Source: an uncultured virus (IMG/VR IMGVR_UViG_2061766007_000271)
Lineage: Duplodnaviria; Heunggongvirae; Uroviricota; Caudoviricetes
DNA length: 60,502 nt
Direction: 5' to 3' (one strand)
Virus record (IMG/VR): IMGVR_UViG_2061766007_000271
Positions 6,782 through 32,515 of the stretch are shown in pieces (positions within the stretch are counted from its first letter, which is position 1; each line of letters starts with the position of its first letter). Below the pieces are notes generated by a model that worked only from the letters and a program-made list of their open reading frames with translations, was not told where the DNA came from and did no database searches. Both the position numbers and the translations under genes were made by a program.

Positions 6782-6853
6782 GCCGAATTGAAGTGCTGGC
6801 AAGCACCAGCCTCTCGGCACTCACATTATATGCCAATTCAAAACAGATTTCAA
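6782..6853 (-). promoter_or_regulatory. class B promoter (TTGAAA-N17-TATAAT) + leader hairpin
   Basis: GTTGAAATC...TGGCATATAAT-N6-GCCGAGAGG...AATTCGGC. Confidence 0.85.
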
Positions 6854-7003
6854 CGGAAAAGCAAAAAATTTGCATATCCAGCGACCAGGACAGATATGCA
6901 ACTGGCACGTATTCAATGTGCATGGCATTCGCATGAATGAAAAAAAGGGTAGTCTTCAAGACCACCCCCAAATCACACGCTGTGCGTCACACTGTATAGT
7001 GCA

Positions 7004-7327
7004 TCACACGTTGTAGTGCCGTTCCAGCCAGCCGAGGCATATCCTCCTCACTCTCGCCCTCGGCATATCCTGCACCCCGTCGTCCTTTGTATAGACCGTC
7101 CTCTTCCAAGGGTGCATGGCATGCTCCATCACCACACGCCTTGACGAGAACGATGGGACTGACGCCTGGCTCGCAACCTCGTCGGCTATCTGCTCCTTGC
7201 ATCTGTTCCACACCACGGCTTCCTTTTCATCTGGCGGTATTGACACACCGTGCATCTGGATTAATTCACGCCACGCCATTGAGAACAACGGCTTCACCGT
7301 CATGTACACTTCCTGCTTGTGCCACAT
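7004..7327 (-). CDS. hypothetical protein
   Basis: ORF with AAGGAGA SD. Confidence 0.65.
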   Translation of the reverse strand: MWHKQEVYMTVKPLFSMAWRELIQMHGVSIPPDEKEAVVWNRCKEQIADEVASQASVPSFSSRRVVMEHAMHPWKRTVYTKDDGVQDMPRARVRRICLGWLERHYNV

Positions 7328-7349
7328 CTTTCATTTCTCCTTTTTGTTT

Positions 7350-7751
7350 TCAGTCTTCCATGCTGTCGTTGAGCAAGTCCCTTTTCTCGTTGAAGCGAGG
7401 GAGTTGCATATATACTGGCTTCGTGCAGTCGAAGTCATCGTCGTCGGTGCGAGCCCAGGGTTCAACGGCATCGGTGCTGAACGCAAGGAACTCGTGCCTG
7501 TCAAAGTCAATGAGATAGAAATACTCTATGTCGGCATGTCTTTCAAATGTAATTTCATACCTCTTGTCGTCAAGCACCTCCCTCACGAATGCCCTCTCAT
7601 CCCATGAGTCAAGGCTCTCCCTGTCGCCAATGTATTTCTGCAACAGTTGTTGTAGTTCCGCCCCCACTCCAGAGAAATATCCGTCGCAGTGGTGGTAGAG
7701 GTTGAGGGGATAGCCATACCTAACTATCCTTATCTGGCATCTTGTGCTCAT
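7350..7751 (-). CDS. conserved phage protein (MSTR...YHHCDGY..GVG.EL type)
   Basis: motif I recall from many phage hypothetical proteins; SD. Confidence 0.8.
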   Translation of the reverse strand: MSTRCQIRIVRYGYPLNLYHHCDGYFSGVGAELQQLLQKYIGDRESLDSWDERAFVREVLDDKRYEITFERHADIEYFYLIDFDRHEFLAFSTDAVEPWARTDDDDFDCTKPVYMQLPRFNEKRDLLNDSMED

Positions 7752-7789
7752 TTTTCACTCTCCTGTTTTCGGTTCATGCTGTGCCATGT

Positions 7790-7843
7790 CCAGCACTCGC
7801 TGGCTGGCACACTCATTATATGCCAGCATGGTCTGGATTTCAA
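7790..7843 (-). promoter_or_regulatory. class B promoter with alternative leader (GCCAGCCAGCGAGTGCTGG)
   Basis: same -35/-10; leader shared with 10361-10414. Confidence 0.8.
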
Positions 7844-8114
7844 CAAAGATAAAGGATTTTTCCGTCACAGCCACATGTATTCAATATGCCACTGGCATTA
7901 TCGTGCAAAAAAGAGGGCTTTCCCTCATTCATCCAGAGGACAATTGCATACAGGGACTTGCACTTGTGCGATTTCACCTCACACGCAGAACGGGGGGTGC
8001 ATCTGGTTCAATCGTTTTTTCCCATGCGCCTCTGGAGAACGGAAAAGCCCTCCACCATGGTGGGAACGGCATAAACACAAATTGAAAATCCGCCGTTCCC
8101 ACCAGCAATGCAAC

Positions 8115-8900
8115 TCATGCATTCTGCTCAATGTACGAGCGAAGTTTCACAAGTGCGTTGTCCTTTATCTGGCGTACACGCTCTGCACTTAGGCGCAACG
8201 CCTCGCCCAGTTCCATGAGTGTCACACGCTCTCCGTTGAGGCTGAACAGACCGCTCACGATTGTGCGTTCCTTTTCGGTCAGCGAGCACAGCCCTTCCCT
8301 CATGAGGTCGAACATTTCATTCCGTTGCCTTGTGCCATAGGATTCATCCTCTTCCTCTTCGCTCACCTTGTCAAGGTAGGTGGTTTCGCTGTCATTGTCC
8401 ATCTTCGCATTCAGCGAGACCTTGGAGTTCCCGCCACTGCGCAGCACCGAAGCCACGATTTTCTTGTTGTAGCCACCGCATGCCTTGGCGATTTCGTCAG
8501 CCGTGGCTGATTCGCCGAGTTCCTCCTTCTTCCTCATGATGTTGCTTGTCCTGTTGTATTTGCCTATGGATTTGGCGATTGCCCCCGACAGGCTGGACAG
8601 GGTGTCCTTTATCTGATGGCGTATGTAGAACTGTGCGAATGTCCCGAACTTGGAACCCATTCCAGGCTTGAAGTTGTTGGCAGCCTGCACCAGACCGAGA
8701 TTGCCAGCACCGATGAGCTCCTCGACTTCAACTCCGTTGTTCTTGTACTGGTGTGCGATTTTCATTACAAGACCAAGATTTGACGAGATGAGTTCGTTGA
8801 TGGCGGTCTTGTCGCCTTCCTGTATCCTCTTCGCAAGTTCCTGCTCCTGCTCTTCAGTCAGCACCTCGTGCCTTTTCATTTCCTCTGCGTAGTTCAGCAT
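8115..8900 (-). CDS. RNA polymerase sigma factor, sigma70 RpoD/RpoH-like
   Basis: region 1.2 LTEEQEQELAKRI, region 2 NLGLVMKIA...GNLGLVQAANNFKP..GSKFGTFA, region 4 LSAERVRQIKDNALVKLR. Confidence 0.95.
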   Translation of the reverse strand: MLNYAEEMKRHEVLTEEQEQELAKRIQEGDKTAINELISSNLGLVMKIAHQYKNNGVEVEELIGAGNLGLVQAANNFKPGMGSKFGTFAQFYIRHQIKDTLSSLSGAIAKSIGKYNRTSNIMRKKEELGESATADEIAKACGGYNKKIVASVLRSGGNSKVSLNAKMDNDSETTYLDKVSEEEEDESYGTRQRNEMFDLMREGLCSLTEKERTIVSGLFSLNGERVTLMELGEALRLSAERVRQIKDNALVKLRSYIEQNA

Positions 8901-8935
8901 GTTTCTTCAAACTCCTTTGTCAAGATTGTGGTTTC

Positions 8936-9008
8936 GCCACTGGGGGCAATGCACTTTGCATTGTCCTCTCGGCACCGACATTATATGCCACTTCAAGACG
9001 GATTTCAA
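8936..9008 (-). promoter_or_regulatory. class B promoter + leader hairpin (drives sigma gene)
   Basis: consensus match. Confidence 0.85.
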
Positions 9009-9126: not shown

Positions 9127-9519
9127 CTAGATTCTGTAGATTCGTGGCTGGACGAACTCCCATTCCACGTTGAAACTGTCCATTATGTCAGTCACGACAT
9201 CCTCATACTCCACATCTTCATCCACGTCATATGATGAGATTGCGTCCTCAATGACGTTGCCGATGTCCCTGCACGACCTGTACTTGACGATGAATGTCAT
9301 TTCCTCGAACTGGAACATGGCGTATCTCTCGTCAAAGCCGACGAACTCGTAGTCACGACCATAGCCGTCAGACCATCTGCCATTCCTTGCCATTGCAGTT
9401 GAGATTTCCTCAAGCCTGTCCTTGCCATACGAGTCTGCGATGAACTTCACCATTTCCGCCTTTGACTTGAATGTGGCAGTCTCCTGCACCTCGTCATTTA
9501 GTCTCACCACCAGTTTCAT
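9127..9519 (-). CDS. hypothetical protein
   Basis: ORF with SD. Confidence 0.8.
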   Translation of the reverse strand: MKLVVRLNDEVQETATFKSKAEMVKFIADSYGKDRLEEISTAMARNGRWSDGYGRDYEFVGFDERYAMFQFEEMTFIVKYRSCRDIGNVIEDAISSYDVDEDVEYEDVVTDIMDSFNVEWEFVQPRIYRI

Positions 9520-9537
9520 GTGTCCATTCTCCTTTGG

Positions 9538-9792
9538 TTAGAGTTCAACTTCGCCTGCGATTACAATGTCGTTCTTGTACCAGTTGTCCACAAGGTCGCA
9601 CAGATACTCCTCGTTGTCGTCGCCCTCGGCATCCAGCGTGCATTCGTAGAGGAACTTGTCGCTTTCAGCCATGTGGTCTATTATGTCAAGCAGTTTCTCA
9701 ACCTGCTTCTGGTTGAACTCGTCAATCTCATGCCTCATTCCATTCACGACAACTCCGTAGCAGGGATGTGGCTGGCATTTGTACTGTTCCAT
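9538..9792 (-). CDS. acidic hypothetical protein
   Basis: ORF with GAGGAG SD. Confidence 0.8.
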   Translation of the reverse strand: MEQYKCQPHPCYGVVVNGMRHEIDEFNQKQVEKLLDIIDHMAESDKFLYECTLDAEGDDNEEYLCDLVDNWYKNDIVIAGEVEL

Positions 9793-9825
9793 ATGATGTA
9801 TCTCCTCTCATTGGTGGAAACCTCT

Positions 9826-9897
9826 GCCGAACTGGGGACATGGCACTTGCCAGCCTCTCGGCACTTGCATTATATGCCAGTCCAACAAGGATTTCAA
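9826..9897 (-). promoter_or_regulatory. class B promoter + leader hairpin
   Basis: consensus match. Confidence 0.85.
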
Positions 9898-10020
9898 CAC
9901 GAATGCGAAAAAAATCTTCTGCGATGCATGGTGATTGAATACATGTGGCGAATGCGGTGCAGACAAAAAAGAGAGCGGTGGACATGAAATCCACCGCCCT
10001 CTGTGATTCAAAAACGGCTG

Positions 10021-10260
10021 TTAGAGTTCAGCCACTCCGTCCTCTATTGCATCCTGTGCAGTGCCGTACACGGGACTGTCGCCCACTTCGGACTCCGTGG
10101 CTTCCTCAACCTCAAAGCATGCGTCCACGTCCTCCTCGCCATCCTCAAGCATCTGGAATTCCAGATAACTGCGAAAGTCCTCGGCTTCGCTCTTTGCCTT
10201 GAAGAAAACAAGAACGTCATATTCGCCTTCGTGCGAAACAACTTTATAAAGCTTGTCCAT
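10021..10260 (-). CDS. acidic hypothetical protein
   Basis: start MDKLYK (or MQMDK) after AGGGA. Confidence 0.75.
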   Translation of the reverse strand: MDKLYKVVSHEGEYDVLVFFKAKSEAEDFRSYLEFQMLEDGEEDVDACFEVEEATESEVGDSPVYGTAQDAIEDGVAEL

Positions 10261-10360
10261 TTGCATTTCCCTTTCTGTTTGCCTTGGAGAAAACCGCCCA
10301 TTCATGTTTTGCCATGAATGGGCGACCCTTACAAGGAGTTAAAAATGACAGTCGCCAAAT

Positions 10361-10414
10361 CCAGCACTCGCTGGCTGGCACACACATTATATGCCAGTTT
10401 TCCTCGCTTTTCAA
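10361..10414 (-). promoter_or_regulatory. class B promoter with alternative leader
   Basis: leader shared with 7790-7843. Confidence 0.8.
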
Positions 10415-10483
10415 CGAAAAAGCAAAAAATTCCTGAAAAAAGCCACGCGCAGTGCACAATGCCACATGTGGCATTCAATGCCT

Positions 10484-13536: not shown

Positions 13537-13609
13537 GCCAAACTGAGGAGTGGCAGGTGTGCCATCCTCTCGGCACATACATTATAAGCCAACTGGACAG
13601 GAATTTCAA
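13537..13609 (-). promoter_or_regulatory. class B promoter + leader hairpin
   Basis: consensus match. Confidence 0.8.
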
Positions 13610-14308: not shown

Positions 14309-14385
14309 GCCGATTTTGTGTGAGTGGAGCAAGTGGCTCTTCCTCTCGGCACTCACATTATATGCCAGTCGGAACTGGATTTCAA
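14309..14385 (-). promoter_or_regulatory. class B promoter + leader hairpin
   Basis: consensus match. Confidence 0.85.
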
Positions 14386-14435
14386 CGATTTTTGAAGATT
14401 TTCTTGAAAATCCCCAAAAAAGCGAAATCCGATTT

Positions 14436-14479
14436 CCTTTCGGCACTCACATAATATGCCATTTCAAAACAAATTTCAA
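14436..14479 (-). promoter_or_regulatory. tandem class B promoter with truncated leader
   Basis: TTGAAA-N17-TATTAT then GCCGAAAGG, no ORF. Confidence 0.75.
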
Positions 14480-14956: not shown

Positions 14957-15029
14957 GCCGAATTGAGGACAAGGCAAATGCCCTGCCTCTCGGCACTGAC
15001 ATTATATGCCAGTTGGACCTGGATTTCAA
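14957..15029 (-). promoter_or_regulatory. class B promoter + leader hairpin
   Basis: consensus match. Confidence 0.85.
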
Positions 15030-15103: not shown

Positions 15104-15695
15104 AAAAATGCCCCTGCTGGAAAGGAAGATAACGGCTTCAATTCCAGCAGGGGCTACTCCACAACCCTTAACTAGGAGTAACAAATAAGGAGAAAATTTC
15201 CAAATGCCGATTTCGGTCTGCAAGGGGCTTACTCTCGGCTGATGTATTGCAGATGGCTGTCTTCCACCTGCGTTGTGATTTCCCTGCATTCACAACAATA
15301 TTGACTGCTTCAAGAGGAAGGGTCTGCCCCAAAGCACAGTCCTCTTCGGCGTGGCTGTAGAGAAAATTGACCAGCCTTTCCTTGTGAGGTCAAGCCGATG
15401 ACCTCATGGTGGCGAAACCCCGTTCTGCCAATTCCACCAGTGGCTCTTATTTGACTTCCCCATCATGGGGAAAGCCCTCCTTTTCAGCCACGAGGGACTG
15501 CATGCCCATCATTTTCGCCATCACCACGCATCGTCCCATGCATGGCAACCCCTGCTGGCACAAGACCCAAGAGAACAGGCAGTCCTGTGCCGAGACCCCG
15601 CCATTTGAATTGTGGAAAAGTGCAAACCACAACTGAACTCTGGCGTCATTCCTCGCACTAGGTCTGCAAGGCAATGTCGCAGGATTTCGTTTCAA
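15104..15695 (-). ncRNA. candidate large structured ncRNA (~590 nt)
   Basis: own promoter and terminator, no credible ORF, >=8 hairpins. Confidence 0.5.
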
Positions 15696-16607: not shown

Positions 16608-16680
16608 GCCGAACTGGGGAGTGGCAGATGTGCCATCCTCTCGGCACATACATTATATGCCAGTCCAAGACCGATTTCAA
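16608..16680 (-). promoter_or_regulatory. class B promoter + leader hairpin
   Basis: consensus match. Confidence 0.85.
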
Positions 16681-20430: not shown

Positions 20431-20448
20431 TGTCTGCTCTCCTATGTT

Positions 20449-22146: not shown

Positions 22147-22172
22147 AACTCTCCTGCAAGTGGTTGCACTCT

Positions 22173-22602: not shown

Positions 22603-22632
22603 AGTGCAGTCTCCAAAAAAGGTGATACATCT

Positions 22633-22703
22633 GCCGAATTGAAGCACAACAAGTGCAGTGCCTCTCGGCACTCACATTATATGCCATTTCAAAAAAATTT
22701 CAA
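22633..22703 (-). promoter_or_regulatory. class B promoter + leader hairpin
   Basis: consensus match, 16-bp spacer. Confidence 0.8.
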
Positions 22704-22906
22704 CAAAAAAAATCAAAAAAAATGTCAAAGCAACAAGCAGTCAAAGTCCTCTCCTCCCATTAGATATACTATATAAGATTTTCAAGGTGGAAATGAAAAA
22801 GTTTTTGCCATTCTGCCGACACCTCCATTCAATCACATGGGACATGCCACTGGCAACAAAAAAAGCCAGCAGGATGAAACCTGCTGGCTCTGGACACGCC
22901 CTCTTT

Positions 22907-23137
22907 CTACTTCGCCATCCACACCTCTATGCTCTCGCCGTTGTCAAACGCCATCCTCTTCTTCACGTTGCCTGTGGTCAGGCTCACATTCGTTGATACA
23001 TCGGTGCAATGCAAACCACGCCTGCAAGCACTGAATTCACGGATTCTCTCGTCTGCATATGAACGTGCCTTGTCGCTGGTCTTGAACATACGCACCTTCT
23101 CCTGCACTCCGTTGATTGTAGTCGCCACTCTAACCAT
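22907..23137 (-). CDS. hypothetical protein
   Basis: AGGAGA SD, start MVRVAT. Confidence 0.75.
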   Translation of the reverse strand: MVRVATTINGVQEKVRMFKTSDKARSYADERIREFSACRRGLHCTDVSTNVSLTTGNVKKRMAFDNGESIEVWMAK

Positions 23138-23168
23138 TGCTGTGTCTCCTGTGCTGTCAATGCAACAA

Positions 23169-23241
23169 GCCGAATTGAGGCATGGCGTGTGTGCCATCCT
23201 CTCGGCATTGGGATTATATGCCAGTATGGACTGGATTTCAA
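23169..23241 (-). promoter_or_regulatory. class B promoter + leader hairpin
   Basis: consensus match. Confidence 0.85.
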
Positions 23242-23368
23242 CAGAAACGAATGAAAAGCATCAAGGCAGACGCCATCTGGCATTCAATGCCAGACAGTCG
23301 GCGGTGAATGAAAAAAAGCAAGGGGGCATGGTGTGGAAACCACGCCCCCTGTTTCACGCAAAAGCCGA

Positions 23369-23539
23369 CTATGCCAGTGCAAGGCACATACCGAACAGTG
23401 TGCATATTAGGAACACAGGAAAGCCTATGAGCATAGCCAGTCCCACGTTGCCTGCGTTGCTTTCGTCATATGCCCTGCACTTCACGTCATATGCATTCTT
23501 TATTGCATTGTAGATTTCGTTCTTCGCTTCTTCGCTCAT
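23369..23539 (-). CDS. small protein with C-terminal TM helix
   Basis: GGAGA SD, start MSEEAK. Confidence 0.65.
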   Translation of the reverse strand: MSEEAKNEIYNAIKNAYDVKCRAYDESNAGNVGLAMLIGFPVFLICTLFGMCLALA

Positions 23540-23639
23540 TCTCTGCCTTATTCTCCAGTTTGGGGGGTTGTGGTTTGAAAACAAAAAAGGGAACGGACAA
23601 CAGACTGCCACGTTCCCCAAACGTCCGTTGATGATGTTG

Positions 23640-23960
23640 CTACTTTTCAGCAATATGCTCAAGTGCGTGTGCCACGCTGGTCTTGAGGTTGTCTATGTAT
23701 TCGCCCCATTCCTCGCACCATTCGTCAAGTGCGTTTGACATTAGTTCCGCCACCTTGCCATTCGGGACATTAAGTATCCTCTGGTACTTGCCATTCTCGT
23801 CATCCACGTCATCCACGCCAGACGCATTGTTCGCCACCTCGCTCTTGAGGATTTCATATTCCTCGTCGTCAAAGAAGCCTGGGAACACGCACCTTGCACG
23901 TTCCTCTTCCGTCATCTTCTCCAGCATTTCGTAAACTTCCTTGCCAGTAAACCTGCTCAT
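23640..23960 (-). CDS. acidic hypothetical protein
   Basis: GGAGA SD, start MSRFTG. Confidence 0.8.
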   Translation of the reverse strand: MSRFTGKEVYEMLEKMTEEERARCVFPGFFDDEEYEILKSEVANNASGVDDVDDENGKYQRILNVPNGKVAELMSNALDEWCEEWGEYIDNLKTSVAHALEHIAEK

Positions 23961-23992
23961 CTGCATTTCTCCGTTGTTAAGGGTTGCACGTT

Positions 23993-24064
23993 GCCGAACT
24001 GGGGTGGAGCAAGAGGCTCTCCTCTCGGCACTGACATTATATGCCAACTGGACACGCATTTCAA
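23993..24064 (-). promoter_or_regulatory. class B promoter + leader hairpin
   Basis: consensus match. Confidence 0.85.
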
Positions 24065-24221
24065 CAGAAACACGCAAAAAACATCAAGAAAGGCACACGC
24101 ATGTGCCAGGTGCGACCACCACATACCAGCAGTGTATTCAATCCCTTCCATGTGGGCGTGGAAACAAAAAAAAACAGGGGAAAGCACCAGTGTACCTTCC
24201 CCTTGCCTGTCGGCAACCTCA

Positions 24222-24728
24222 TCAATTCCGTTGCCATATCCTGTCAGGCGATTTGAACTGGCAGTAGTCCTCTCCAAAGCCACCTTCCTCTATCGGCTCG
24301 TCCAGTTCGTTGCCGTCCTCATCTTCGTATATCCTAGACCATTCACGTATGTCGCTGACCAAGTTGCCATTGTGGTCGCAGGCTATCCACTCCTGGAATT
24401 CATTCCCGCATTCCTCGGAGTACAGTTCCACAGCCACGTCCAGTTTGGGGCAGAGCAGGTCAAGCGATATGAAGTGGGCACCATTGAGAATCTGCCCCTC
24501 GTTCTCAACGTTGCAGAACAGGTCTATGCAGTTCCAAGCACTGTCGCCCTCTATCTCGACCACGCAGAAGCCATCCTCTGTCCTCTGTATTTCGCCACAC
24601 ATTCTTGCATAGAATATGCGTCCAGCGTAGAATTCGCCGTCCTCTGCATTCATTATGGACACAAGACGCCTGATTGCGTCCTCGTTCTTCGCAACAACTT
24701 TCATCAGAAAATAGCAGTCATTCGCCAT
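24222..24728 (-). CDS. hypothetical protein, possibly YubB/DUF1281 ferredoxin-like
   Basis: MANDC start, SAW and YSEECG..F motifs (family call tentative). Confidence 0.7.
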   Translation of the reverse strand: MANDCYFLMKVVAKNEDAIRRLVSIMNAEDGEFYAGRIFYARMCGEIQRTEDGFCVVEIEGDSAWNCIDLFCNVENEGQILNGAHFISLDLLCPKLDVAVELYSEECGNEFQEWIACDHNGNLVSDIREWSRIYEDEDGNELDEPIEEGGFGEDYCQFKSPDRIWQRN

Positions 24729-24762
24729 AAGCCAGTTCTCCATTGTCAAAGGTGTGGGACAC

Positions 24763-24836
24763 GCCGAATTGAGGTACAGGCACATATACCAGCCTCTCGG
24801 CACATACATAATATGCCAATTTCAAACGGATTTCAA
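24763..24836 (-). promoter_or_regulatory. class B promoter + leader hairpin
   Basis: consensus match. Confidence 0.85.
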
Positions 24837-24960
24837 CTCACACGATGAAAAAAACTGGAAAACATCATTTTGTCCAGTATGATTGAATACCGTGTCCATA
24901 TGGCTGAATGAAAAAAAGAGGCAGGCGTGAATGCGTCTGCCTCTAATGTGGACTGGACTT

Positions 24961-25230
24961 CTATACCTTGACCACTGTGCATTCCACGATGTGCGTGGTT
25001 GTCCTGTTGTCATTCTCTGGCATCCAGGTGAAGCCCTTGTTGCAGAAAGCGGTCTCGTCCGTGATTTTGTCGGATATGAGGTCTGCGATTTCGCTTTCGT
25101 CATTGATGTCATCCACCTCATTCTCGTCGATTTCAACAGTCATCTGCGTCGGTAGCGAGGCAAGTATTTCCTCTGCCTCTTCCTCTCCGTCCACGTCCCA
25201 TTCTATGTTCGTCACGATGTACTTCGCCAT
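24961..25230 (-). CDS. acidic protein, paralog of 5680-5892
   Basis: VTNIEWDVD...EIL.SLP.QM shared. Confidence 0.8.
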   Translation of the reverse strand: MAKYIVTNIEWDVDGEEEAEEILASLPTQMTVEIDENEVDDINDESEIADLISDKITDETAFCNKGFTWMPENDNRTTTHIVECTVVKV

Positions 25231-25264
25231 AAGCCAGTTCTCCATTGTTGAGGATTTGAAACAC

Positions 25265-25335
25265 GCCGTCTTGAGGCATGGCACACGCCAGCCTCTCGGC
25301 ATTCACATTATATGCCAGTTCAAGACCGATTTCAA
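25265..25335 (-). promoter_or_regulatory. class B promoter + leader hairpin
   Basis: consensus match. Confidence 0.85.
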
Positions 25336-25462
25336 CGAAATCAACGAAAAAACTGGATTCCATCATAGCCATATTCAATGCACAGCCCCTATGGGTAGAA
25401 ACAAAAAAAACGGCAGGACTGGACAATTCCAGTCCTGCCCCTTTGCTCCCCCCTTCGTATGG

Positions 25463-25852
25463 CTATTTCACCACGATGTACTCGTTGCCGTCAAAGGCGA
25501 TTTTGAGTATCTTGTCAAGGTGGCATTCACGATAGCCTTGAGCCTGCGAGTCATAGAACCCGAAGATTCCCTTCGTCCTGCGTTCGGCAAAGGTCTCGCC
25601 CACACCTTTCGGTGCGATTGACTTGTCTTTGGGGTTATGCACTCCAGTCTGTGCGAGTGCCTCTCTCTCATATGAGATTGCCCCGCCACAATAAGGGCAG
25701 ACGGCAGGGTGCGAGGCAACCCACTTCTTGCTTGTCCTGCCACAGGACGTGCATTTGGGCAACGTGCGTTCAAATGTCAAAGAAAAGAAACGTCCATGCT
25801 GGATTGATTTTACGAGACTGGCGATTTCAGAAGAGGTGATGTTCTTTTTCAT
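25463..25852 (-). CDS. WYL/SH3-like protein with zinc-ribbon insertion (paralog 1)
   Basis: PKCTSCG...CPYCGG; FSLTF...YD....YR....I..I. Confidence 0.7.
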   Translation of the reverse strand: MKKNITSSEIASLVKSIQHGRFFSLTFERTLPKCTSCGRTSKKWVASHPAVCPYCGGAISYEREALAQTGVHNPKDKSIAPKGVGETFAERRTKGIFGFYDSQAQGYRECHLDKILKIAFDGNEYIVVK

Positions 25853-25886
25853 CTGCGTTGCAATGTGGAGAAAGAGAGTGTGTTTC

Positions 25887-25970
25887 GGCGGAAATCCAGC
25901 ACACGCTGGCTCTGCCATGGTTTCTTTCTCTCGGCACATACATTATATGCCATTTCAAGACCGATTTCAA
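25887..25970 (-). promoter_or_regulatory. class B promoter with divergent leader
   Basis: -35/-10 consensus; GCCGAGAGAAAG. Confidence 0.8.
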
Positions 25971-26153
25971 CAAAAAAAGCGAAAAAAGTTGAAAATCGTC
26001 AAAAAAAATACAGACCAGGTGCAGACAAGGCGTGGACAATGCATTCAATCATGCCATGCATTCAATGTCGCATGATGACTTGAATGAAAAAAAGGGGAGC
26101 GGACTGGATTTTCCAGTCCGCTCCACTTTGCCTATGCCCTTGCCTGTATCCTA

Positions 26154-26486
26154 CTATACAAGATAGAACTCAAGTCCGTTATGCTCCAGCGACACCACGT
26201 TGCGTAGTATGCACTGTTTCATATGCCTGTCTGCGAAGTAGTAGAAATTCCCTTCCTCGCCAATGCCGTTGCTGATGTAGCAGTCCACGTCGCCCTCATA
26301 GGCTATAAGTCCGCCACAATGGGGGCAAATGGCTGGCTTCGTCTTGAGCCAAGCCGAACTCTTGCGACCGCAACTTGTGCATTTGGGCGTTGCCCGCCTG
26401 TATTTCATATGCCATAGTGTCTGCCTCGTGTCGCAGGAATTCACGATTTCCTTCAGTTGCGTTGCAGTGACCAGTTTTCTCTCCAT
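26154..26486 (-). CDS. zinc-ribbon WYL/SH3-like paralog 2
   Basis: PKCTSCG...CPHCGG. Confidence 0.75.
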   Translation of the reverse strand: MERKLVTATQLKEIVNSCDTRQTLWHMKYRRATPKCTSCGRKSSAWLKTKPAICPHCGGLIAYEGDVDCYISNGIGEEGNFYYFADRHMKQCILRNVVSLEHNGLEFYLV

Positions 26487-26519
26487 AGTGCATTCTCCTG
26501 TAAGGGGGGTGATACATCT

Positions 26520-26592
26520 GCCGAATTGAGAGCAGGGCAAGTGCCTCGCCTCTCGGCACTCACATTATATGCCAGTTGGACACGCATTTCAA
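26520..26592 (-). promoter_or_regulatory. class B promoter + leader hairpin
   Basis: consensus match. Confidence 0.85.
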
Positions 26593-26727
26593 CAAAACCG
26601 AATGAAAAAGTCAACTGGCGTCCACATTATGCCAGACATGTATTCAATCACGACGTCCGTACTGCAGATGCGAAAAAGCCCGACCTCATTCATCATTCGG
26701 TCGGGCTTGCGTGGCTTGATTCAGCCG

Positions 26728-27045
26728 TTATTTCTCGGCTACCTTTGCGTCTCCATAGAAGTCATCCACATTGTAGGCTTCTGCGAATTCCTCGTCAAGT
26801 GGGTTGCCATTCTCGTCAAAATATTCCCCAAGCCAAGTGCATTCACCATATTCTGTGCCTGGGCAGGAGTCAATGTAGAATGCCTCCTTGTCTGGCATTG
26901 GAGTGCCATCCCATTTCTGCGTCATGACAAGACCTATTCCGTCCCTGCCGACGATTCTCCTGTTGCCTACATCTTCCTTGAGGAAGGCTACCATTTCGCT
27001 AAAGGTGTCAAAGGAAAAGCGTTCAAAAGTACCAGTTTTCCGCAT
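26728..27045 (-). CDS. acidic hypothetical protein
   Basis: GGAGA SD, start MRKTG. Confidence 0.8.
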   Translation of the reverse strand: MRKTGTFERFSFDTFSEMVAFLKEDVGNRRIVGRDGIGLVMTQKWDGTPMPDKEAFYIDSCPGTEYGECTWLGEYFDENGNPLDEEFAEAYNVDDFYGDAKVAEK

Positions 27046-27077
27046 AGATGAATTCTCCATTAAGGGGTTGCGTCTCT

Positions 27078-27151
27078 GCCGAATTGAGGAACAGGGCAAA
27101 TGCCTCGCCTCTCGGCATTGACATTATATGCCAAAAGAATCGTGATTTCAA
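27078..27151 (-). promoter_or_regulatory. class B promoter + leader hairpin
   Basis: consensus match. Confidence 0.85.
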
Positions 27152-27293
27152 CGCACACGATGAAAAAACACGGAATGCAATCACAGCCACAGGACGGATG
27201 CCATGCAGGATTGAATACACATTCCCCCGTCAATGAATGAAAAAAGGGGGTATGGTGGCTTTGCCACCAGACCCCCTGCCTACACGTCTTCGC

Positions 27294-27611
27294 TTATTCG
27301 CCTACCACTTCCACATTGTACTGCTCTCCTATTGAGCATTCCCACACGCCTTCAAGCGTGTCGGCACACGCATCCGAACAGGACATTTCATATCCGTCCT
27401 TGTCAAACCAGACCATTTCGCACCAGAGATTGGTCTGCCCAGAACAAACACGCAGGTCGGCAAAGCACCCGTCCTCAAACTGGACTGTCCTGCTGAACAG
27501 GGTCTCATCCTCACGGACATCTTCCTTCTCAAAGTCAATGTCCTCGCCAAGTTGCAGAAGCCTGTTCCACCTGTCCGCCTCTGCCTTGCTGATTGTGATT
27601 CTCTTCGCCAT
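27294..27611 (-). CDS. hypothetical protein
   Basis: AGGAGA SD. Confidence 0.8.
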   Translation of the reverse strand: MAKRITISKAEADRWNRLLQLGEDIDFEKEDVREDETLFSRTVQFEDGCFADLRVCSGQTNLWCEMVWFDKDGYEMSCSDACADTLEGVWECSIGEQYNVEVVGE

Positions 27612-27649
27612 GGTCGCTTTCTCCTGTTGGTTATGGGTTATGGATTGTC

Positions 27650-27904
27650 CTAATCTTCCTCGTCAATGTCCTGTGCCATGGCAGAACAAGCCTCCCAATA
27701 GGGATTTTCCTCGTCATATTTGTCGTTGAACTGGCTGATTACCTCGTCATCGGTCATTCCGTCCAGTCTGTCGCTGTCCTCGACATATGACGACACGCTT
27801 TCACGAATGTCGTCTGCCGTGTAGATGTTGTAGAGAACCTTTGCGTTCTTGTCAAGTTTCTTGAGGTCTGCGATAACCTCGGCTACTGTCTTTACTAGGC
27901 TCAT
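27650..27904 (-). CDS. acidic hypothetical protein
   Basis: GGAGA SD. Confidence 0.8.
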   Translation of the reverse strand: MSLVKTVAEVIADLKKLDKNAKVLYNIYTADDIRESVSSYVEDSDRLDGMTDDEVISQFNDKYDEENPYWEACSAMAQDIDEED

Positions 27905-27935
27905 CTGTCATTCTCCATGTCAGGGGTTGCACTCT

Positions 27936-28008
27936 GCCGAACTGGGGAGTAGCGGGTGTGCCATCCTCTCGGCACATACATTATATGCCATTTCAACAAA
28001 GATTTCAA
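27936..28008 (-). promoter_or_regulatory. class B promoter + leader hairpin
   Basis: consensus match. Confidence 0.85.
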
Positions 28009-28166
28009 AGCAACAGACAAAAATAGTCAAATTTCCATCATTTTTCGCTGGATGTGGGCGACCAGGTGTTCCACAGGTGGCATCATATATTCAATCACAA
28101 CGACAGGACTATAGGCACGAAAAAAGCCTGGCTTCATTCAGTCAGGCTTTCGTGGTTCGCAGAATC

Positions 28167-28358
28167 CTACGGCAGTTTCCACACATTCATCTTCATATAC
28201 GATGACGTGAATGTCTTTTTCGCCCTTAGATATGCGTCCATTATGTTCAGTTGTTGCAGTTTGCCCATTTCCTTCAGCTTCCTGCACTTGCGTATAGCCT
28301 CTGCCATTCTGTACTTGTAGATTTTATAGACAGGTGTGTTGTGCGTGATTGTCCTCAT
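28167..28358 (-). CDS. basic hypothetical protein
   Basis: GAGGAG SD, start MRTITH. Confidence 0.7.
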   Translation of the reverse strand: MRTITHNTPVYKIYKYRMAEAIRKCRKLKEMGKLQQLNIMDAYLRAKKTFTSSYMKMNVWKLP

Positions 28359-28388
28359 TTCATTCTCCTCTCTTCCAGTTGCGTTCCA

Positions 28389-28459
28389 GTCGAATTGAGC
28401 CACAGGGACTTCCTGCCTCTCGGCACAGGGATTATATGACAGTCAAGACAGGATTTCAA
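28389..28459 (-). promoter_or_regulatory. class B promoter + leader hairpin
   Basis: consensus match. Confidence 0.8.
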
Positions 28460-28579
28460 CGGAACTGAATGAAAAAACACCAGTTGTGAATGGACGGCTG
28501 TATTCAATGCATCTGCCATGCGAATGGACATAAAAAACAGGCGTGGCAGAAATGCCACACCCTATTCCTTTATTTATGA

Positions 28580-28789
28580 CTACTTGTAGTGCCTTTCCCC
28601 ATTCTCATCTTCCTCTCCACTCACTTCCACCTCGTAGTCATCTGTGAGGTGGTCGGTCAGTTTCCATTGGATATTGCCGTTCTCCACCATTGAGGACGCC
28701 TTTTCCTCTGCCTCTTCCTCTGTATTCGCCTCTACCACGATGCTTTGTGCGATAGTACGGAAAACATCTACAACAAACTTCTTCGCCAT
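28580..28789 (-). CDS. DpnD/PcfM-like small protein (VEANTEEEA)
   Basis: motif; SD. Confidence 0.75.
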   Translation of the reverse strand: MAKKFVVDVFRTIAQSIVVEANTEEEAEEKASSMVENGNIQWKLTDHLTDDYEVEVSGEEDENGERHYK

Positions 28790-28817
28790 AAGCCTATCTC
28801 CATTTTAAGGTGGGACT

Positions 28818-28890
28818 GCCGAACTGGGGAGTGGCAGGTGTGCCATCCTCTCGGCACTCACATTATATGCCATTTTCAAACAGATTTCAA
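28818..28890 (-). promoter_or_regulatory. class B promoter + leader hairpin
   Basis: consensus match. Confidence 0.85.
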
Positions 28891-29047
28891 CAGGAACAAC
28901 AAAAAAACACGGAATGCAATCACAGCCATATTCAATGCATACCCAGTTGAGGAAAACAAAAAAATGAGTGGTCTGGACACAAACGCCAATAAATGTCCAG
29001 ACCACCCGAGACGCACTTGCCAAAAAAGTGCGTCCAAGACCTTATTC

Positions 29048-29233
29048 TTATTGTTCAGCCTCGCCAATCACCTCGTAGCCACTGTCGCCAAGTTCAAGGT
29101 TGGAAAAGTCCACCTCTCCATTCTCCACCTTGTTCTTGAGGATTTCCACTGCCTCTTCAGCAGTTTCCGCCTCTATGTTCTCAAACAGAGCCGAATGCTC
29201 CCAGTACTCAACCGTGAAGATTTTCTTTGCCAT
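29048..29233 (-). CDS. DpnD/PcfM-like small protein (IEAETAEEA)
   Basis: motif; SD. Confidence 0.75.
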   Translation of the reverse strand: MAKKIFTVEYWEHSALFENIEAETAEEAVEILKNKVENGEVDFSNLELGDSGYEVIGEAEQ

Positions 29234-29265
29234 AAGTTCACTTCTCCATTATAGGTTCAGCCTCT

Positions 29266-29338
29266 GCCGAATTGAGGAAAGAGCAAATGCTCTCCCTCTC
29301 GGCACATACATTATATGCCATTTTCAAACGGATTTCAA
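29266..29338 (-). promoter_or_regulatory. class B promoter + leader hairpin
   Basis: consensus match. Confidence 0.85.
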
Positions 29339-29471
29339 CAGAACTGAATGAAATATCTTCATCAGCCACCATACCTAGGCACAAGCTAATATTCAATCAC
29401 CAATGCCTTTGCCTGTGAATGAAAAAAGGGGGCGGTGGTCTTATGAACCACCGCCCCACGATGTTGCGGAA

Positions 29472-29816
29472 CTATCTCATGACGAAATACTCGTCCTCGT
29501 CCAGCGAGAACCAGATGAGATTTCCTGTGAGGCAACACCTCTTCTCGTAATGCTCATTCCAGTATGTAATGTGCCTGTCATAAGTGCCGATATACTCTAT
29601 ATCCGTAGGCTTTACATTAGCCACATACTCCACTTCCACGCCACATTTGTCGCACACGGCGTTGCTTGTTCTGCTCCACACGGTGCTTTGCTTTCCACAC
29701 CTGGGGCACTTGGGTGTCTTCCTCTTGAAGACGATGCGGATTTTCTTTCCGTCTGCACGACTTGCGTGGTGGTTGATGAGATTGATTGCGTCTGTCTGCG
29801 TGATGATTTTTCTCAT
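29472..29816 (-). CDS. zinc-ribbon WYL/SH3-like paralog 3
   Basis: PKCPRCG...CDKCG; close to 30018-30365. Confidence 0.75.
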   Translation of the reverse strand: MRKIITQTDAINLINHHASRADGKKIRIVFKRKTPKCPRCGKQSTVWSRTSNAVCDKCGVEVEYVANVKPTDIEYIGTYDRHITYWNEHYEKRCCLTGNLIWFSLDEDEYFVMR

Positions 29817-29854
29817 TGTGTGGCTCCTGTTTGCTGGGGGTGTGGTGTAAAAAG

Positions 29855-29909
29855 GGCAAACCCATTCTCTGGGCATATATATAATATGCCATTTCCAGAC
29901 GGATTTCAA
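29855..29909 (-). promoter_or_regulatory. class B promoter, degenerate leader
   Basis: TTGAAA-N17-TATTAT, GCCCAGAG. Confidence 0.75.
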
Positions 29910-30017
29910 CGCCTGTCGAAGAAAAAACCCACACGAAAACGCAAGTGCCACGGCATCACATTCAATGCATCATTCCTTTCCTTGAATGAAAAAAGACAAT
30001 GAACGCCATCATCGCTG

Positions 30018-30365
30018 TCACATCACGAAATATTCGTCCTCGTCTATGGAGAACCACATCAGATTTTCAATGAGGCAATGCCTCTTCTGGCAATGTTCGT
30101 CAAGGCATGTAACCCACTTGTCATAATTGCCTATGGAATATATTGTCATTGGCTTTACGTCAGCCACATACTCCACTTCCACGCCACATTTGTCGCATAT
30201 GGCGTTGCTCATTCTGCCCCATGCGATGCTTTGCTTTCCGCAACTGGGGCACTTGGGGTATTGTCTCCTGAACATGATGTGCAGTTTTCTTCCGCTGAAA
30301 TACTGGTCTCTGGCGTATTCGTTGAGAATGCCGACCGCCTCATTCCGCAAGATGATCTTCCTCAT
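30018..30365 (-). CDS. zinc-ribbon WYL/SH3-like paralog 4
   Basis: PKCPSCG...CDKCG. Confidence 0.75.
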   Translation of the reverse strand: MRKIILRNEAVGILNEYARDQYFSGRKLHIMFRRQYPKCPSCGKQSIAWGRMSNAICDKCGVEVEYVADVKPMTIYSIGNYDKWVTCLDEHCQKRHCLIENLMWFSIDEDEYFVM

Positions 30366-30413
30366 GTGCTTTCATGCTCCCTGTCTGATTTGAAAATGTT
30401 TTTGTCTGTACGC

Positions 30414-30442
30414 ATTATATGCCAACTGGACACGGATTTCAA
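30414..30442 (-). promoter_or_regulatory. class B promoter without leader hairpin
   Basis: TTGAAA-N17-TATAAT. Confidence 0.8.
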
Positions 30443-30547
30443 CAGGACTGGATAAAAAAAGCATCCATGTGATTGAATACAACTGCACATGCCAGTGGAA
30501 CAAAAAAACAGGCGTGGCAAATGCCACGCCCACAGTCCAATGCCGAC

Positions 30548-31033
30548 CTATTTCCCAGTGTTGATGATTTCCACTATCCTCTTGAGGTCTGCCTCGCTGA
30601 TTTCCCTGTATACCCAGCCACTTCCATAGACATATCCGTTGTCGTCGTACACGCCTGCCTTCTTCAACGCCTCGCAAGCCATCTGGTAGTCGTATTCGCC
30701 GTTGCCGAATGCACGTTCCAGTTCCTGCTCCTGCCGTTCAGTCCCGCTGTGCATTCCGTTGAGGTGGTTCCTCTTCCACAAGCCGACTATCTCGTTGTAG
30801 AGCCTGTTGTACTTCAGCGAGCAATGCTCCTGTATGTAGTCAAGGCACTGACCACACAGGATGCAGTCGGTGTGCCTCGCATTCCAGACAACTCCGTGTG
30901 CGGAGAATTCCAGCCTGCCATCGTCCTTTGTACACAGTTGAAGGACAACATCGACCTCGTTGAGTTTGCGTCCACTGTTGGACAACGCTTTCTTTCCAAA
31001 GGAAATTATCCGTTTCAGTTCAACATTCTGCAT
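30548..31033 (-). CDS. conserved phage protein (GQCLD...W...HLN.M..G...GY.YGS.W)
   Basis: motif; GGAGA SD, start MQNVEL. Confidence 0.8.
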   Translation of the reverse strand: MQNVELKRIISFGKKALSNSGRKLNEVDVVLQLCTKDDGRLEFSAHGVVWNARHTDCILCGQCLDYIQEHCSLKYNRLYNEIVGLWKRNHLNGMHSGTERQEQELERAFGNGEYDYQMACEALKKAGVYDDNGYVYGSGWVYREISEADLKRIVEIINTGK

Positions 31034-31066
31034 TGTGCGAATTCTCCACGTTAAGGGTTGCACTCT

Positions 31067-31140
31067 GCCGAATTGAGGAACAGGGCAGATGCCTTGCCTC
31101 TCGGCACTTACATTATATGCCAATTCAACAAGGATTTCAA
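31067..31140 (-). promoter_or_regulatory. class B promoter + leader hairpin
   Basis: consensus match. Confidence 0.85.
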
Positions 31141-31622
31141 CACGAATGCGAAAAAAATCCAAACCAGTCCAGTCAACGGTGATTGAATAACTGACCCATT
31201 CTCTCAAGGGTGATGGTCTTTCCAATCTGCGATTCACGCCCATTCGGCTTTCGCCATATGAGGCACAGTCCCATGCAACCGAACAGAGGCGTCCTGCTTC
31301 TGCGTATCCTGCCGACAATCACTGATTCCACATCGTCTGAAGTCAGAATGCTCTCTGTCTGGAATTCAAGTGCGTCAAGCCAGCAGTTCCGTTCCAGTTT
31401 CCTTATCACATACGAATTCATCTGAACAACGCTCCAAAACAGAAAAGAAAGGCACGCACATTCATAAGGCACAAGGCAAATGTATTTTTCATTTCATATG
31501 CTCCAATTCACATCAAACCATCGTTTCTTCGTATTATACCACATGCATATTCAATCCCAAGGCAACCAATGCAGGCATGAAAAAAAGAGTGTCCGATTGG
31601 ACACGCCCTTTGCTTCACCTGC

Positions 31623-31844
31623 CTATTTGCTTTTCCATTTCAGCATGCCCTGCACGTTAAGTGCGATGTACACGATGAACATGGCGATTTGCGACCAGTT
31701 GGGTGTTCCAAGCAGATTCACCGCTATCCACAGCAGGTTGGAGATTATCCACACCATGAAGCCCATACGCTTCTGGTAGTTTATGAGGACGTTTCCACCG
31801 AGTGAAAATGCAAGTGCGACTAGCGAAACGATGTTGAGTGCCAT
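31623..31844 (-). CDS. small multi-TM membrane protein (half-PnuC-like)
   Basis: GF.VWIISN.LW...Y..LNV.G..KW. Confidence 0.7.
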   Translation of the reverse strand: MALNIVSLVALAFSLGGNVLINYQKRMGFMVWIISNLLWIAVNLLGTPNWSQIAMFIVYIALNVQGMLKWKSK

Positions 31845-31896
31845 AAGTGTTGTCTTTTCTCCTTGTTTTGGGGTTCCTCTCTCTTGAAACGCCAAT

Positions 31897-31924
31897 AATA
31901 TAGCACAAGTGCGGGATTATGCAA
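31897..31924 (-). promoter_or_regulatory. class C promoter TTGCAT-N12-GTGC-TATATT-AT-TGGCGTTT
   Basis: shared with both sigma-pair promoters. Confidence 0.7.
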
Positions 31925-32179
31925 ATAGGTTTTTCACATTTTCTTGAAAAAAGTGCGTTTTCCCTGCAAGGGAATGCCACATGTATTCAATCAGCACGGA
32001 CATGGAGAACGAAAGAGGGCTGGACACCTATATCCAGCCCTCTGTGGCAGACGGAGACACAAATGCCTNNNNNNNNNNNNNNNNNNNNNNNNCGAATGTA
32101 TTCAATATGACCATCCCCTGTGTGGAAACAAAAAAACGAGGGACTGGCGAAAACCAGTCCCTCTATTTGGTGGCAAGCG

Positions 32180-32407
32180 TTACTTGCCAAAACTCTTCTC
32201 TTGGCACTTGAGGCAAAGCCCGCTTATGAGCGTTTCACGCTTTTCAGTGGACAGGTTGGGGAATGCGTCCTGCATCAACGCTCCATTCCGCCTTTTCTCA
32301 ATGCCCTCGTTGGGGACTTCCACAACGGTCTGCTCTCCGCAGAAGGGGCAGACGATTGTGAGGACGGTTGTGGTGGCGTTTTCGGTTACGTTTGCGATGT
32401 TAAGCAT
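32180..32407 (-). CDS. zinc-binding phage protein (CPFCG...QDAFP.LS...RE.LISG.C..CQ)
   Basis: motif; start MLNIAN. Confidence 0.8.
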   Translation of the reverse strand: MLNIANVTENATTTVLTIVCPFCGEQTVVEVPNEGIEKRRNGALMQDAFPNLSTEKRETLISGLCLKCQEKSFGK

Positions 32408-32442
32408 TTTTGTTCCTTTTGTTGGGGGGTGTGGGGGTTTAT

Positions 32443-32515
32443 GCCGAATTGAGGAAAGGGCAAATGCCCTGCCTCTCGGCACATACATAATATGCCAATT
32501 CAAGACGGATTTCAA
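32443..32515 (-). promoter_or_regulatory. class B promoter + leader hairpin
   Basis: consensus match. Confidence 0.85.

Follow-up and report, generated by a model that had tools for sequence, protein, structure and literature searches.

Why would a phage place one hairpin about 25 times on a single strand of its DNA, and does this hairpin act as RNA at the start of messages or as an element of the DNA itself? The question is raised by a stretch of 60,502 nucleotides (nt) from an uncultured virus (IMG/VR record IMGVR_UViG_2061766007_000271), referred to here as the window, for which an initial annotation made from the letters alone had proposed a covarying 5'-leader RNA hairpin repeated 25 times. 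The repeat itself was confirmed: 25 promoter-linked copies of the pattern GCCGAGAGG-(stem-loop)-CCYC-ARU-UCGGC lie between positions 6782 and 32480, all on the minus strand, with the first and last copies at the coordinates originally given and a chance expectation of 0. We suggest that each hairpin forms the predicted 5' end (+1) of a short transcription unit and that it is a 5'-terminal leader element acting on the fate of the mRNA, with protection of the message end as the likeliest core of its role, a reading drawn from sequence in which our confidence is about even.

The copy number was established by searches of decreasing stringency. The strict pattern GCCGAGAGG-N8-30-CCYCARTTCGGC matched 13 times and on the minus strand only, where shuffled sequences (n=100) led us to expect 0.00 matches, and a looser hairpin pattern matched 18 times against 0.01 expected by shuffling. 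A mismatch-tolerant regular expression returned 24 minus-strand matches, 23 of them behind a promoter and one an orphan (15206-15239) that is possibly a hairpin remnant, and the listings of flanking sequence added two promoter-linked variants, 8936-8973 and 25265-25300, which brought the total to 25. A covariance model trained on 12 gap-free copies, used to search the window with filters off and at E<0.01, recovered 23 minus-strand copies while those at 8936-8973 and 14309-14350 escaped it; its plus-strand matches were only the reverse complements of the same hairpin sites (11-17.5 bits). The window contains N-masked stretches in which features could hide.

The position of the hairpin relative to its promoter is the first line of evidence for a role at the message start. 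The promoter TTGAAAT-N12-GGCATATAAT (TTGAAA, a 17-nt spacer and TATAAT), predicted to be of the near-consensus sigma-70/sigma-A type, is present in 33 good copies on the minus strand from 6825 to 34813; the pattern search gave 35 minus-strand matches, from which those at 15701 and 56846 were set aside as poor, and no copy of the TTGAAA-17-TATAAT class was found on the plus strand of the window. In a consensus scan these promoters scored 11/12 or 10/12 hexamer matches with a spacer of 17 nt. Behind 25 of the 33, GCCGAGAGG begins after exactly 6 nt from the -10 box, at the expected initiation position. When the 25 copies were compared, conservation reached 97% in the -35 box, 98% in the -10 box, 74% in the spacer, 77% in the 6-nt discriminator and 100% from +1 to +9. 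The earlier statement that transcripts begin with GCCGA holds as far as promoter geometry can carry it, which places the predicted +1 at the hairpin start in 25/25 promoter-linked copies, and what stands of the proposal of a cis-regulatory RNA is a structured element in a predicted 5' leader directly behind a conserved promoter. The remaining eight of the 33 promoters carry other leaders: two have alternative hairpins at +1, two have short stems from +1 or +2, one (25942-25970) has no matching 3' arm and three have no leader hairpin.

The hairpin turned out to be part of a larger repeated promoter cassette, which had been missed when the hairpin was viewed singly. Read along the minus strand, the cassette runs from the intrinsic terminator of the previous unit through an ATTGAAT-type heptamer, a T-run, the promoter and 6 nt to GCCGAGAGG at predicted positions +1 to +9, followed by the distal stem-loop, CCYC-ARU-UCGGC, a C-rich spacer, GGAGA and the start codon. 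The spacer behind the hairpin is semi-conserved and AGAGUGCAACCCCUUGACA-like, GGAGA stands 7-9 nt before the ATG, and the ATG lies at +64 to +77, giving a predicted leader length of 64-77 nt. The T-runs of minus-strand terminators are followed by recurring motifs, TTTTTTCATTC or TTTTTTTGTTTCCAC (for example at 21425-21433, 24165-24176 and 30495-30508), and since these motifs recur 3' of the T-runs, the conserved cassette spans ~190 base pairs (bp) and includes the terminator of the preceding unit. In the interval from 19.5 to 35.5 kilobases (kb) the consensus scan counted 23 such promoters, together with 15 terminator-like sites on the minus strand whose stems measure 10-16 bp; terminator-like sites number 38 in total, compared with 14.7 +/- 4.1 in shuffles. 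The array is therefore a chain of short self-contained units, in each of which a promoter and hairpin lead to a ribosome site, then to one or two small genes and finally to a terminator.

The second line of evidence comes from the fold. Isolated hairpins have folding energies of -11.1 to -22.6 kcal/mol, with z scores against dinucleotide shuffles of -1.1 to -5.0 in the eight copies tested. Their common fold comprises a basal helix P1 (GCCGA/UCGGC), a 3-nt bulge on the 3' side (AAU, or AGU in the CCCC subtype), a helix P2 (GAGG/CCYC) and, above P2, a 1-nt bulge or mismatch, a distal helix of 5-6 bp and a loop of 4-6 nt. All five distal stems that had been quoted as examples of compensatory change (copies at 21798, 16608, 32443, 8936 and 6782) are present as quoted, and the compensatory pairing itself was borne out by three kinds of count. 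In the 12 gap-free copies, 91.7% of cells are paired, compared with 81.6% after shuffling of the 3' partners, where 0/500 shuffles come up to the real figure, and 35-50% after a shift of the partners by one to three columns, and five pairs, all in the distal helix, change on both sides; the copies are paralogues within one genome, related by duplication, so that shuffle tests overstate their independence. In the 23 model-aligned copies, 311/339 cells pair against 272 +/- 4.6 after shuffling, and 113/138 against 73.8 +/- 4.6 in the distal helix, both in an alignment that was itself fitted to structure. When distal half-stems were swapped among the 25 copies, own partners gave -6.6 and foreign partners -4.84 kcal/mol (0/10,000 permutations). 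Distal stems fall into about seven types, the copies at 21312 and 22210 being mismatched hybrids. RNAalifold on a plain MAFFT alignment of the 25 copies recovered the 5-bp basal stem only, because this alignment is not structure-aware.

The word covarying is justified for the distal helix and not for the basal stem, which displays no covariation whatever, a distinction that the initial annotation, which called the basal stem and bulge near-invariant, had overlooked. None of the nine basal pairs changes on both sides (0/9), and the 5' arm is identical at 9/9 positions in 25/25 copies; variation is confined to the basal 3' arm, with six G.U cells and a few mismatches. The bulge reads A-R-U in 22/25 copies, and alignment column 30 is an invariant A. 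A change in the 3' arm, U29C, goes together with the bulge change A32G: 6/6 CCCC copies have AGU, across four distal-stem types, as opposed to 1/19 of the others. Where a leader has no 3' arm, its 5' arm drifts (GCCGAAAGG, GCCGAGAGA, GCCGAAAC), which ties the invariance of that arm to the hairpin and not to the promoter alone.

We propose that the host RNA polymerase would produce ~25 short mRNAs from this array, mostly of one or two genes, each starting with the hairpin without an unpaired 5' nucleotide and most of them ending in a terminator hairpin. The leader hairpin would act in cis on the RNA, most likely by blocking 5'-end-dependent decay, be it by a pyrophosphohydrolase and RNase E or, in a Gram-positive host, by RNase J1/Y, and would thereby yield long-lived early messages. 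Its basal 9 bp and 3-nt bulge, fixed in sequence, may in addition be recognised by a specific factor, or else RNA polymerase may read them as initial transcribed sequence. The ~125-190-bp repeats would, as a side effect, swap sequence and probably shuffle the intervening genes in the manner of the promoter-early stem-loop (PeSL) cassettes considered below. A hairpin at the predicted +1, with no unpaired 5' nucleotide and in one copy per terminated unit, has the design of a 5'-terminal protective hairpin, and the unrelated hairpins that also start at +1 (7808 and 10379) fit a structural need at the 5' end. When each leader was folded whole, together with 30 nt of coding sequence, the probability of the terminal pair came to at least 0.89 in 15/25 copies (mean 0.70). 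Stabilisation of mRNA by 5'-terminal stem-loops is described for E. coli and B. subtilis in a review (PMC7509114, citing Emory 1992, Hambraeus 2002 and Sharp & Bechhofer 2005).

Besides the paralogy of the copies, several observations weigh against end protection by an RNA hairpin. A leader hairpin is wholly absent behind three promoters, the hairpin is lost (P<=0.05) in 4/25 copies when the full leader is folded, and the degenerate copy at 28389-28424 folds no better than its shuffles (z -1.1). A strand test based on wobble pairs gave 16 G.U and 21 A.C cells, so that sense RNA is not preferred over antisense RNA or single-stranded DNA (ssDNA); the case for RNA as the active form comes from context, namely the conserved promoter, the orientation shared with the genes and the tolerance of bulges and wobbles, and bulges and wobble pairs would be expected to hinder cruciform extrusion. 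Lastly, the basal helix lacks compensatory drift, unlike the distal helix, which points to sequence-specific reading of a kind that simple protection does not need, and the invariant base, the conservation of the bulge and the coupling of U29C to A32G are all left unexplained by simple end protection.

These features of the base are what a sequence-specific RNA tag would account for, in which a phage or host protein would bind or cleave the basal helix, made up of GCCGA/UCGGC and GAGG/CCYC and interrupted by the ARU bulge; this reader might be a nuclease of the RNase III type, a regulator of translation, or a factor sparing phage messages or shutting off early genes together. In its favour, the 5' arm is identical throughout while the discriminator just upstream is 77% conserved and the distal stem and loop are variable, the bulge bases are kept though pairing does not require them, U29C and A32G co-occur across four distal-stem types, and the 5' arm drifts in leaders that have no 3' arm. 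The invariant base beside a covarying tip is a hint that a specific reader exists. However, profile scans of the 60-kb window recognised no candidate RNA-binding protein or RNase, the loop, a usual site of recognition, is not conserved, and a helix of ~15 bp with bulges is short for a classical RNase III site. The invariance could also reflect a role of +1 to +9 at the DNA level, in initiation and promoter escape, and a tag is not required to sit exactly at +1. Such a tag is compatible with end protection, and we regard it as a serious rival or addition, albeit a distinctly less probable one. Slightly more doubtful is the specific version in which the invariant basal helix and ARU bulge mark messages at the 5' end as the phage's own, a 'self' tag recognised by a protein, of phage or host, dedicated to it; if true, ~25 early messages would share one fate, for instance being spared from phage-induced mRNA decay, or being jointly translated or silenced at the early-to-middle switch. 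That the hairpin sits precisely on the predicted +1, in ~25 units with terminators of their own, favours a role for each mRNA, whether as protection or as a factor-binding tag, over processive antitermination.

The notion of a DNA-level element draws on comparison with related DNA. Cattle-gut metagenome runs contain the DNA of the window, and a contig of 1,087 nt (L021), the only related DNA that was read, is ~95% identical to window positions 9400-10480, its differences clustering in promoter spacer, discriminator and hairpin loop. Its promoter core matches the window copy at 24029 in 34/35 positions and the positional counterpart at 9862 in only 26/35, which in sequence terms is a gene-conversion pattern, with the core exchanged between copies. 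Contigs of related strains from four other cattle-gut runs have joints inside cassettes (20841>25928, 21792>23991, 24802>30414 and 31078>25278), which fit cassette-mediated shuffling, but since these are short metagenome contigs at 80% likeness, the joints may partly be a repeat artefact, a point that counts against the proposed side effect. Elsewhere, successive exact-pattern scans of viral contigs gave 0 loci, 19 unrelated coding-sequence matches and 29 unrelated promoter-pattern matches; protein-guided scans of viral contigs gave ~30%-identical sigma factors or nothing, one such locus (L028) being without comparable repeats. Metagenome contigs yielded seven loci, of which L021 alone is related, genome contigs yielded four chance matches, and GenBank phages no DNA match to the window.

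The mosaic promoter of L021 and the joints within cassettes are consistent with the idea that +1 to +9 serve as initial transcribed sequence and the palindrome, through homology or secondary structure, as a recombination site between cassettes, leaving the RNA hairpin nearly functionless. PeSL cassettes are described as recombining in or beside their stem-loops, and a targeting DNA-binding protein was speculated on by the authors of that account (PMC2839356); the G.U and A.C counts, too, express no preference for RNA. Yet homology alone leaves the two-sided, pairing-preserving changes of the variable distal stem unexplained, the conserved bulge and the 37 wobble or mismatch cells speak against cruciform extrusion, and eight promoters with other leaders imply that the promoter does not need GCCGAGAGG. 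We consider this explanation improbable.

An antiterminator had been among the options first proposed, and we consider it very improbable that the nascent RNA carries a put- or nut/boxB-like signal for processive antitermination, by which polymerase would read through the downstream terminators. Known antitermination systems have one or two sites per operon, and ~25 copies that all have a promoter and a terminator to themselves are the opposite of that layout; if read-through were intended, the terminators would be pointless. In addition, put is a two-stem fold, unlike the present single 36-42-nt hairpin, and the hairpin has no Rfam match. What the array does share with such systems is a conserved-sequence hairpin of nascent RNA near the promoter of units that are followed by strong terminators, and HK022 put is described as a promoter-proximal RNA acting on polymerase (PMC9378689). 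Weaker still, and scarcely credible to us, is the attC- or REP-like alternative of an ssDNA hairpin for a recombinase or transposase (attC-like, REP/RAYT-like or IS200/IS605-type): the imperfect palindrome with extrahelical bases, the orphan gene cassettes between copies and a TnpB-like open reading frame (ORF) inside a low-GC island of the array would suit it, but all 25/25 copies have a single orientation and a fixed distance to the promoter, the 3' end ARTTCGGC (C at the first R position) does not fit the GTTRRRY core of attC, the hairpins do not mark the ends of the TnpB-bearing island, and no integrase or HUH/Y1 protein (RAYT/TnpA) was found among the ORFs scanned, which cover 60 kb of a probably ~290-kb genome with islands that are partly N-masked. 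Two further candidates were dropped: a K-turn, boxB-like or coat-protein-operator-like bulge, for which the required GA pairs or loop are absent, and a sigma-54 reading of the TGGCA upstream of the -10 box, where direct reading found no TTGC at the right spacing.

Coordinates of leader hairpins, alternative leaders and predicted promoters in the window (promoters given from -35 to -10; bits, covariance model score; z, against dinucleotide shuffles)
Feature	Position	Strand	Promoter	Particulars	Support
Leader hairpin	6782-6818	-	6825-6853		26.6 bits; z -3.0
Variant hairpin	8936-8973	-	8980-9008	Distal CAAUGC/GCAUUG; 3' end ..CAGUGGC; precedes sigma-factor gene 8115-8900 (-)	z -3.2; missed by covariance model
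Leader hairpin	9826-9862	-	9869-9897		Orthologous copy in contig L021
Leader hairpin	13537-13574	-	13581-13609		Pattern, fold, covariance model
Variant hairpin	14309-14350	-	14357-14385	Larger 3' bulge (ACACAAAA)	Missed by covariance model
Leader hairpin	14957-14994	-	15001-15029		60.1 bits; z -5.0
Leader hairpin	16608-16645	-	16652-16680		Strict pattern, covariance model, shuffle z tested
Leader hairpin	20010-20046	-	20053-20081		Looser pattern, covariance model
Leader hairpin	20812-20849	-	20856-20884		Regular expression, covariance model
Leader hairpin	21275-21312	-	21319-21347	Hybrid distal stem with mismatches	Regular expression, covariance model
Leader hairpin	21798-21836	-	21843-21871		Strict pattern, covariance model, shuffle z tested
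Leader hairpin	22173-22210	-	22217-22245	One distal mismatch	Looser pattern, covariance model
Leader hairpin	22633-22669	-	22676-22703	Promoter spacer 16 nt	Looser pattern, covariance model, shuffle z tested
Leader hairpin	23169-23206	-	23213-23241		Strict pattern, covariance model
Leader hairpin	23993-24029	-	24036-24064		Strict pattern, covariance model
Leader hairpin	24763-24801	-	24808-24836		Strict pattern, covariance model
Variant hairpin	25265-25300	-	25307-25335	3' end ..CCUCAAGACGGC	26.8 bits
Leader hairpin	26520-26557	-	26564-26592		Looser pattern, covariance model
Leader hairpin	27078-27116	-	27123-27151		Strict pattern, covariance model
Leader hairpin	27936-27973	-	27980-28008		Strict pattern, covariance model
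Degenerate hairpin	28389-28424	-	28431-28459	3' end UCGAC; weakest fold	19.5 bits; z -1.1
Leader hairpin	28818-28855	-	28862-28890		Strict pattern, covariance model
Leader hairpin	29266-29303	-	29310-29338		Strict pattern, covariance model
Leader hairpin	31067-31105	-	31112-31140		Strict pattern, covariance model
Leader hairpin	32443-32480	-	32487-32515		59.7 bits
Alternative hairpin	7783-7808	-	7815-7843	GCCAGCCAGCGAGUGCUGG..; begins at predicted +1	-15.2 kcal/mol
Alternative +1 hairpin, second copy	10354-10379	-	10386-10414		-14.6 kcal/mol
Promoter without canonical hairpin		-	14451-14479	Leader starts GCCGAAAGG; short stem, then T-run	
Promoter		-	25942-25970	Leader starts GCCGAGAGA; no matching 3' arm	
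Promoter		-	29881-29909	Short 5-bp hairpin at +1 (GCCCA/UGGGU)	
Promoter without leader hairpin		-	30414-30442		
Promoter without leader hairpin		-	33730-33758		
Promoter without leader hairpin		-	34785-34813	Leader starts GCCGAAAC	
Orphan hairpin-like sequence	15206-15239	-		GCCGAGAGU...AAAUCGGC; no upstream promoter	

Some cassettes listed above have additional features. Within 14357-14479 on the minus strand, two cassette promoters stand in tandem, 94 nt apart, and the upstream one would yield an RNA of only ~30 nt ending in a short stem and T-run. Behind the promoter at 10386-10414, the alternative +1 hairpin is followed by a strong terminator-like hairpin (~10286-10324) and a T-run before the ribosome site; this leader (10286-10379, minus strand), which is wholly identical in contig L021, may attenuate transcription. 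A quasi-palindromic heptamer, ATTSAAT, is found 64 times compared with 22.6 +/- 4.7 expected, often within a longer palindrome flanked by CAYATG (examples at 21922-21928 and 26043-26066), and sits between terminator and promoter in 28/32 cassettes examined, ~65-125 nt upstream of most cassette starts. Six copies lie at 35866-36030, in a divergent intergenic region adjoining two sigma-factor genes, and the heptamer is a candidate binding site of an early-promoter regulator.

The source of the window is probably an uncultured jumbo phage, and a 398-amino-acid window protein has a homologue at 87% identity on a 293-kb contig. Its host is probably Gram-positive, judging from gene content and ribosome sites: among GenBank phages with matches to the window's lysin (n=31), 28 are named for Gram-positive genera and three are fecal phages, and the strong GGAGA ribosome sites fit such a host. 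Besides this lysin (LysM plus Hydrolase_2), the window encodes a ClpP-like protease, and most of its other proteins match no family. Three sigma-70-family factors are encoded at 8115-8900 (minus strand), 34873-35577 (minus strand) and 36217-36855 (plus strand), the first of them behind a cassette promoter and the variant hairpin at 8973; three such factors, one of them cassette-driven, suggest a sigma cascade for middle and late genes. Apart from this one sigma factor, no gene between cassettes could be given a PHROG or Pfam function, and none of the 56 small proteins scanned reached the Pfam cut-off, which makes them orphans. Weak, sub-threshold zinc-ribbon matches were seen in small paralogous array proteins (29472-29816, 30018-30365, 25463-25870 and 26154-26486, all minus strand), the first two of which are joined in related-strain contigs.

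Two low-GC islands (26-36% compared with ~48%), both partly N-masked, interrupt the array at about 10.4-13.9 kb and 16.8-19.6 kb. In the second, an ORF on the plus strand encodes a Cas12f1-like/TnpB TNB domain (E 1.4e-17), and the islands are probably inserted elements of the insertion sequence (IS)/TnpB type. Beyond the array, within and near the divergent control region, tandem repeats lie at 35769-35829, 37103-37151, 37218-37324 and 37612-37681, with units of 11 nt x 5.5 (GCCTGTATAGA), 20 nt x 2.5, 51 nt x 2.1 and 17 nt x 4.1; these iteron-like repeats may constitute a replication origin or control region. A gene at 37828-38598 on the plus strand, with an 18-nt periodic DNA repeat, encodes a beta-solenoid/hexapeptide-repeat protein (PHROG 5070, E 2.9e-55). 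A direct-repeat search of 35.5-60.5 kb found no further promoter-like repeat class.

How does the array compare with systems already described? The statement that the hairpin belongs to no recognised family holds in our Rfam search, which gave 0 matches at gathering thresholds across the whole window; at E<=1 within 20000-33000, the sole match on a hairpin was PhotoRC-I, with 18.1 bits against a threshold of 45. Our literature searches turned up no account of this element, nor of cassettes of this kind in jumbo phages or phages of the cattle gut. The hairpins at which RNase III processes early mRNA of phage T7 and early RNAs of SP82/SPO1 are likewise structures that recur in early transcripts, contain internal loops or bulges and determine where mRNAs end and how stable they are, but they are longer and lie between the genes of a polycistronic transcript, whereas the present hairpins lie at the predicted start of separate units. 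The 5'-terminal stabilisers of E. coli (ompA-type) and B. subtilis (ermC/aprE leaders), as portrayed in the review cited above (PMC7509114), share the arrangement of a stable hairpin at the 5' end, a spacer and a ribosome site. The cases treated there are single genes with half-life data and need neither a conserved bulge nor an invariant base, whereas the present element is repeated 25-fold, conserved in sequence and known from sequence alone. The 25 natural variants of one 5' hairpin on a near-constant promoter and leader form a test series for the effects of 5' structure, basal sequence and bulge on mRNA life and translation.

The closest conceptual precedent, missed by the initial annotation, is provided by the PeSL cassettes of T4-type phages (Arbiol et al. 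2010, PMC2839356; Comeau et al. 2014, PMC4122927), which by these accounts combine a stem-loop with a strong early promoter of sigma-70-like type and an AT-rich tract upstream, stand ahead of orphan genes and mediate modular shuffling. As there portrayed, PeSLs are multi-copy units of ~100 bp with early promoter, AT-rich tract, stem-loop and Shine-Dalgarno site that precede orphan genes in a plastic region and recombine with one another, and one subclass has its stem-loop downstream of the -10 box (PMC2839356). The present array matches this with 33 copies of a predicted TTGAAA-17-TATAAT promoter with upstream T-run, with a stable stem-loop in the cassette, here as 25 canonical and two alternative hairpins, and with orphan genes next to the cassettes in a plastic region. 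PeSL stem-loops, however, are reported in these papers to vary in position and to have been shown to act as terminators or attenuators, whereas the present hairpin always lies at the predicted +1, has no U-tract behind it (the sequence reads UCGGCAGAG..) and is accompanied by separate terminators, with 10-16-bp stems and T-runs, upstream of the promoters. Its basal stem and bulge are invariant in sequence, there is no sequence similarity between the two kinds of cassette, and the phage has no T4-type genes in the window, no T4-type core gene being recognised among the 33 large ORFs scanned. Judged by its sequence, the array resembles PeSLs as a portable, probably recombining expression unit and departs from them in the stem-loop as terminator and in the T4-type carrier. 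Repeats of this sort cause metagenome assemblies to break and, in the accessory regions of phages, drive the shuffling of genes, and the array would extend the PeSL idea of a 'portable expression plug' from T4-type coliphages to an unrelated, uncultured cattle-gut phage, in which the stem-loop has shifted from the role of a terminator to the predicted start of the message.

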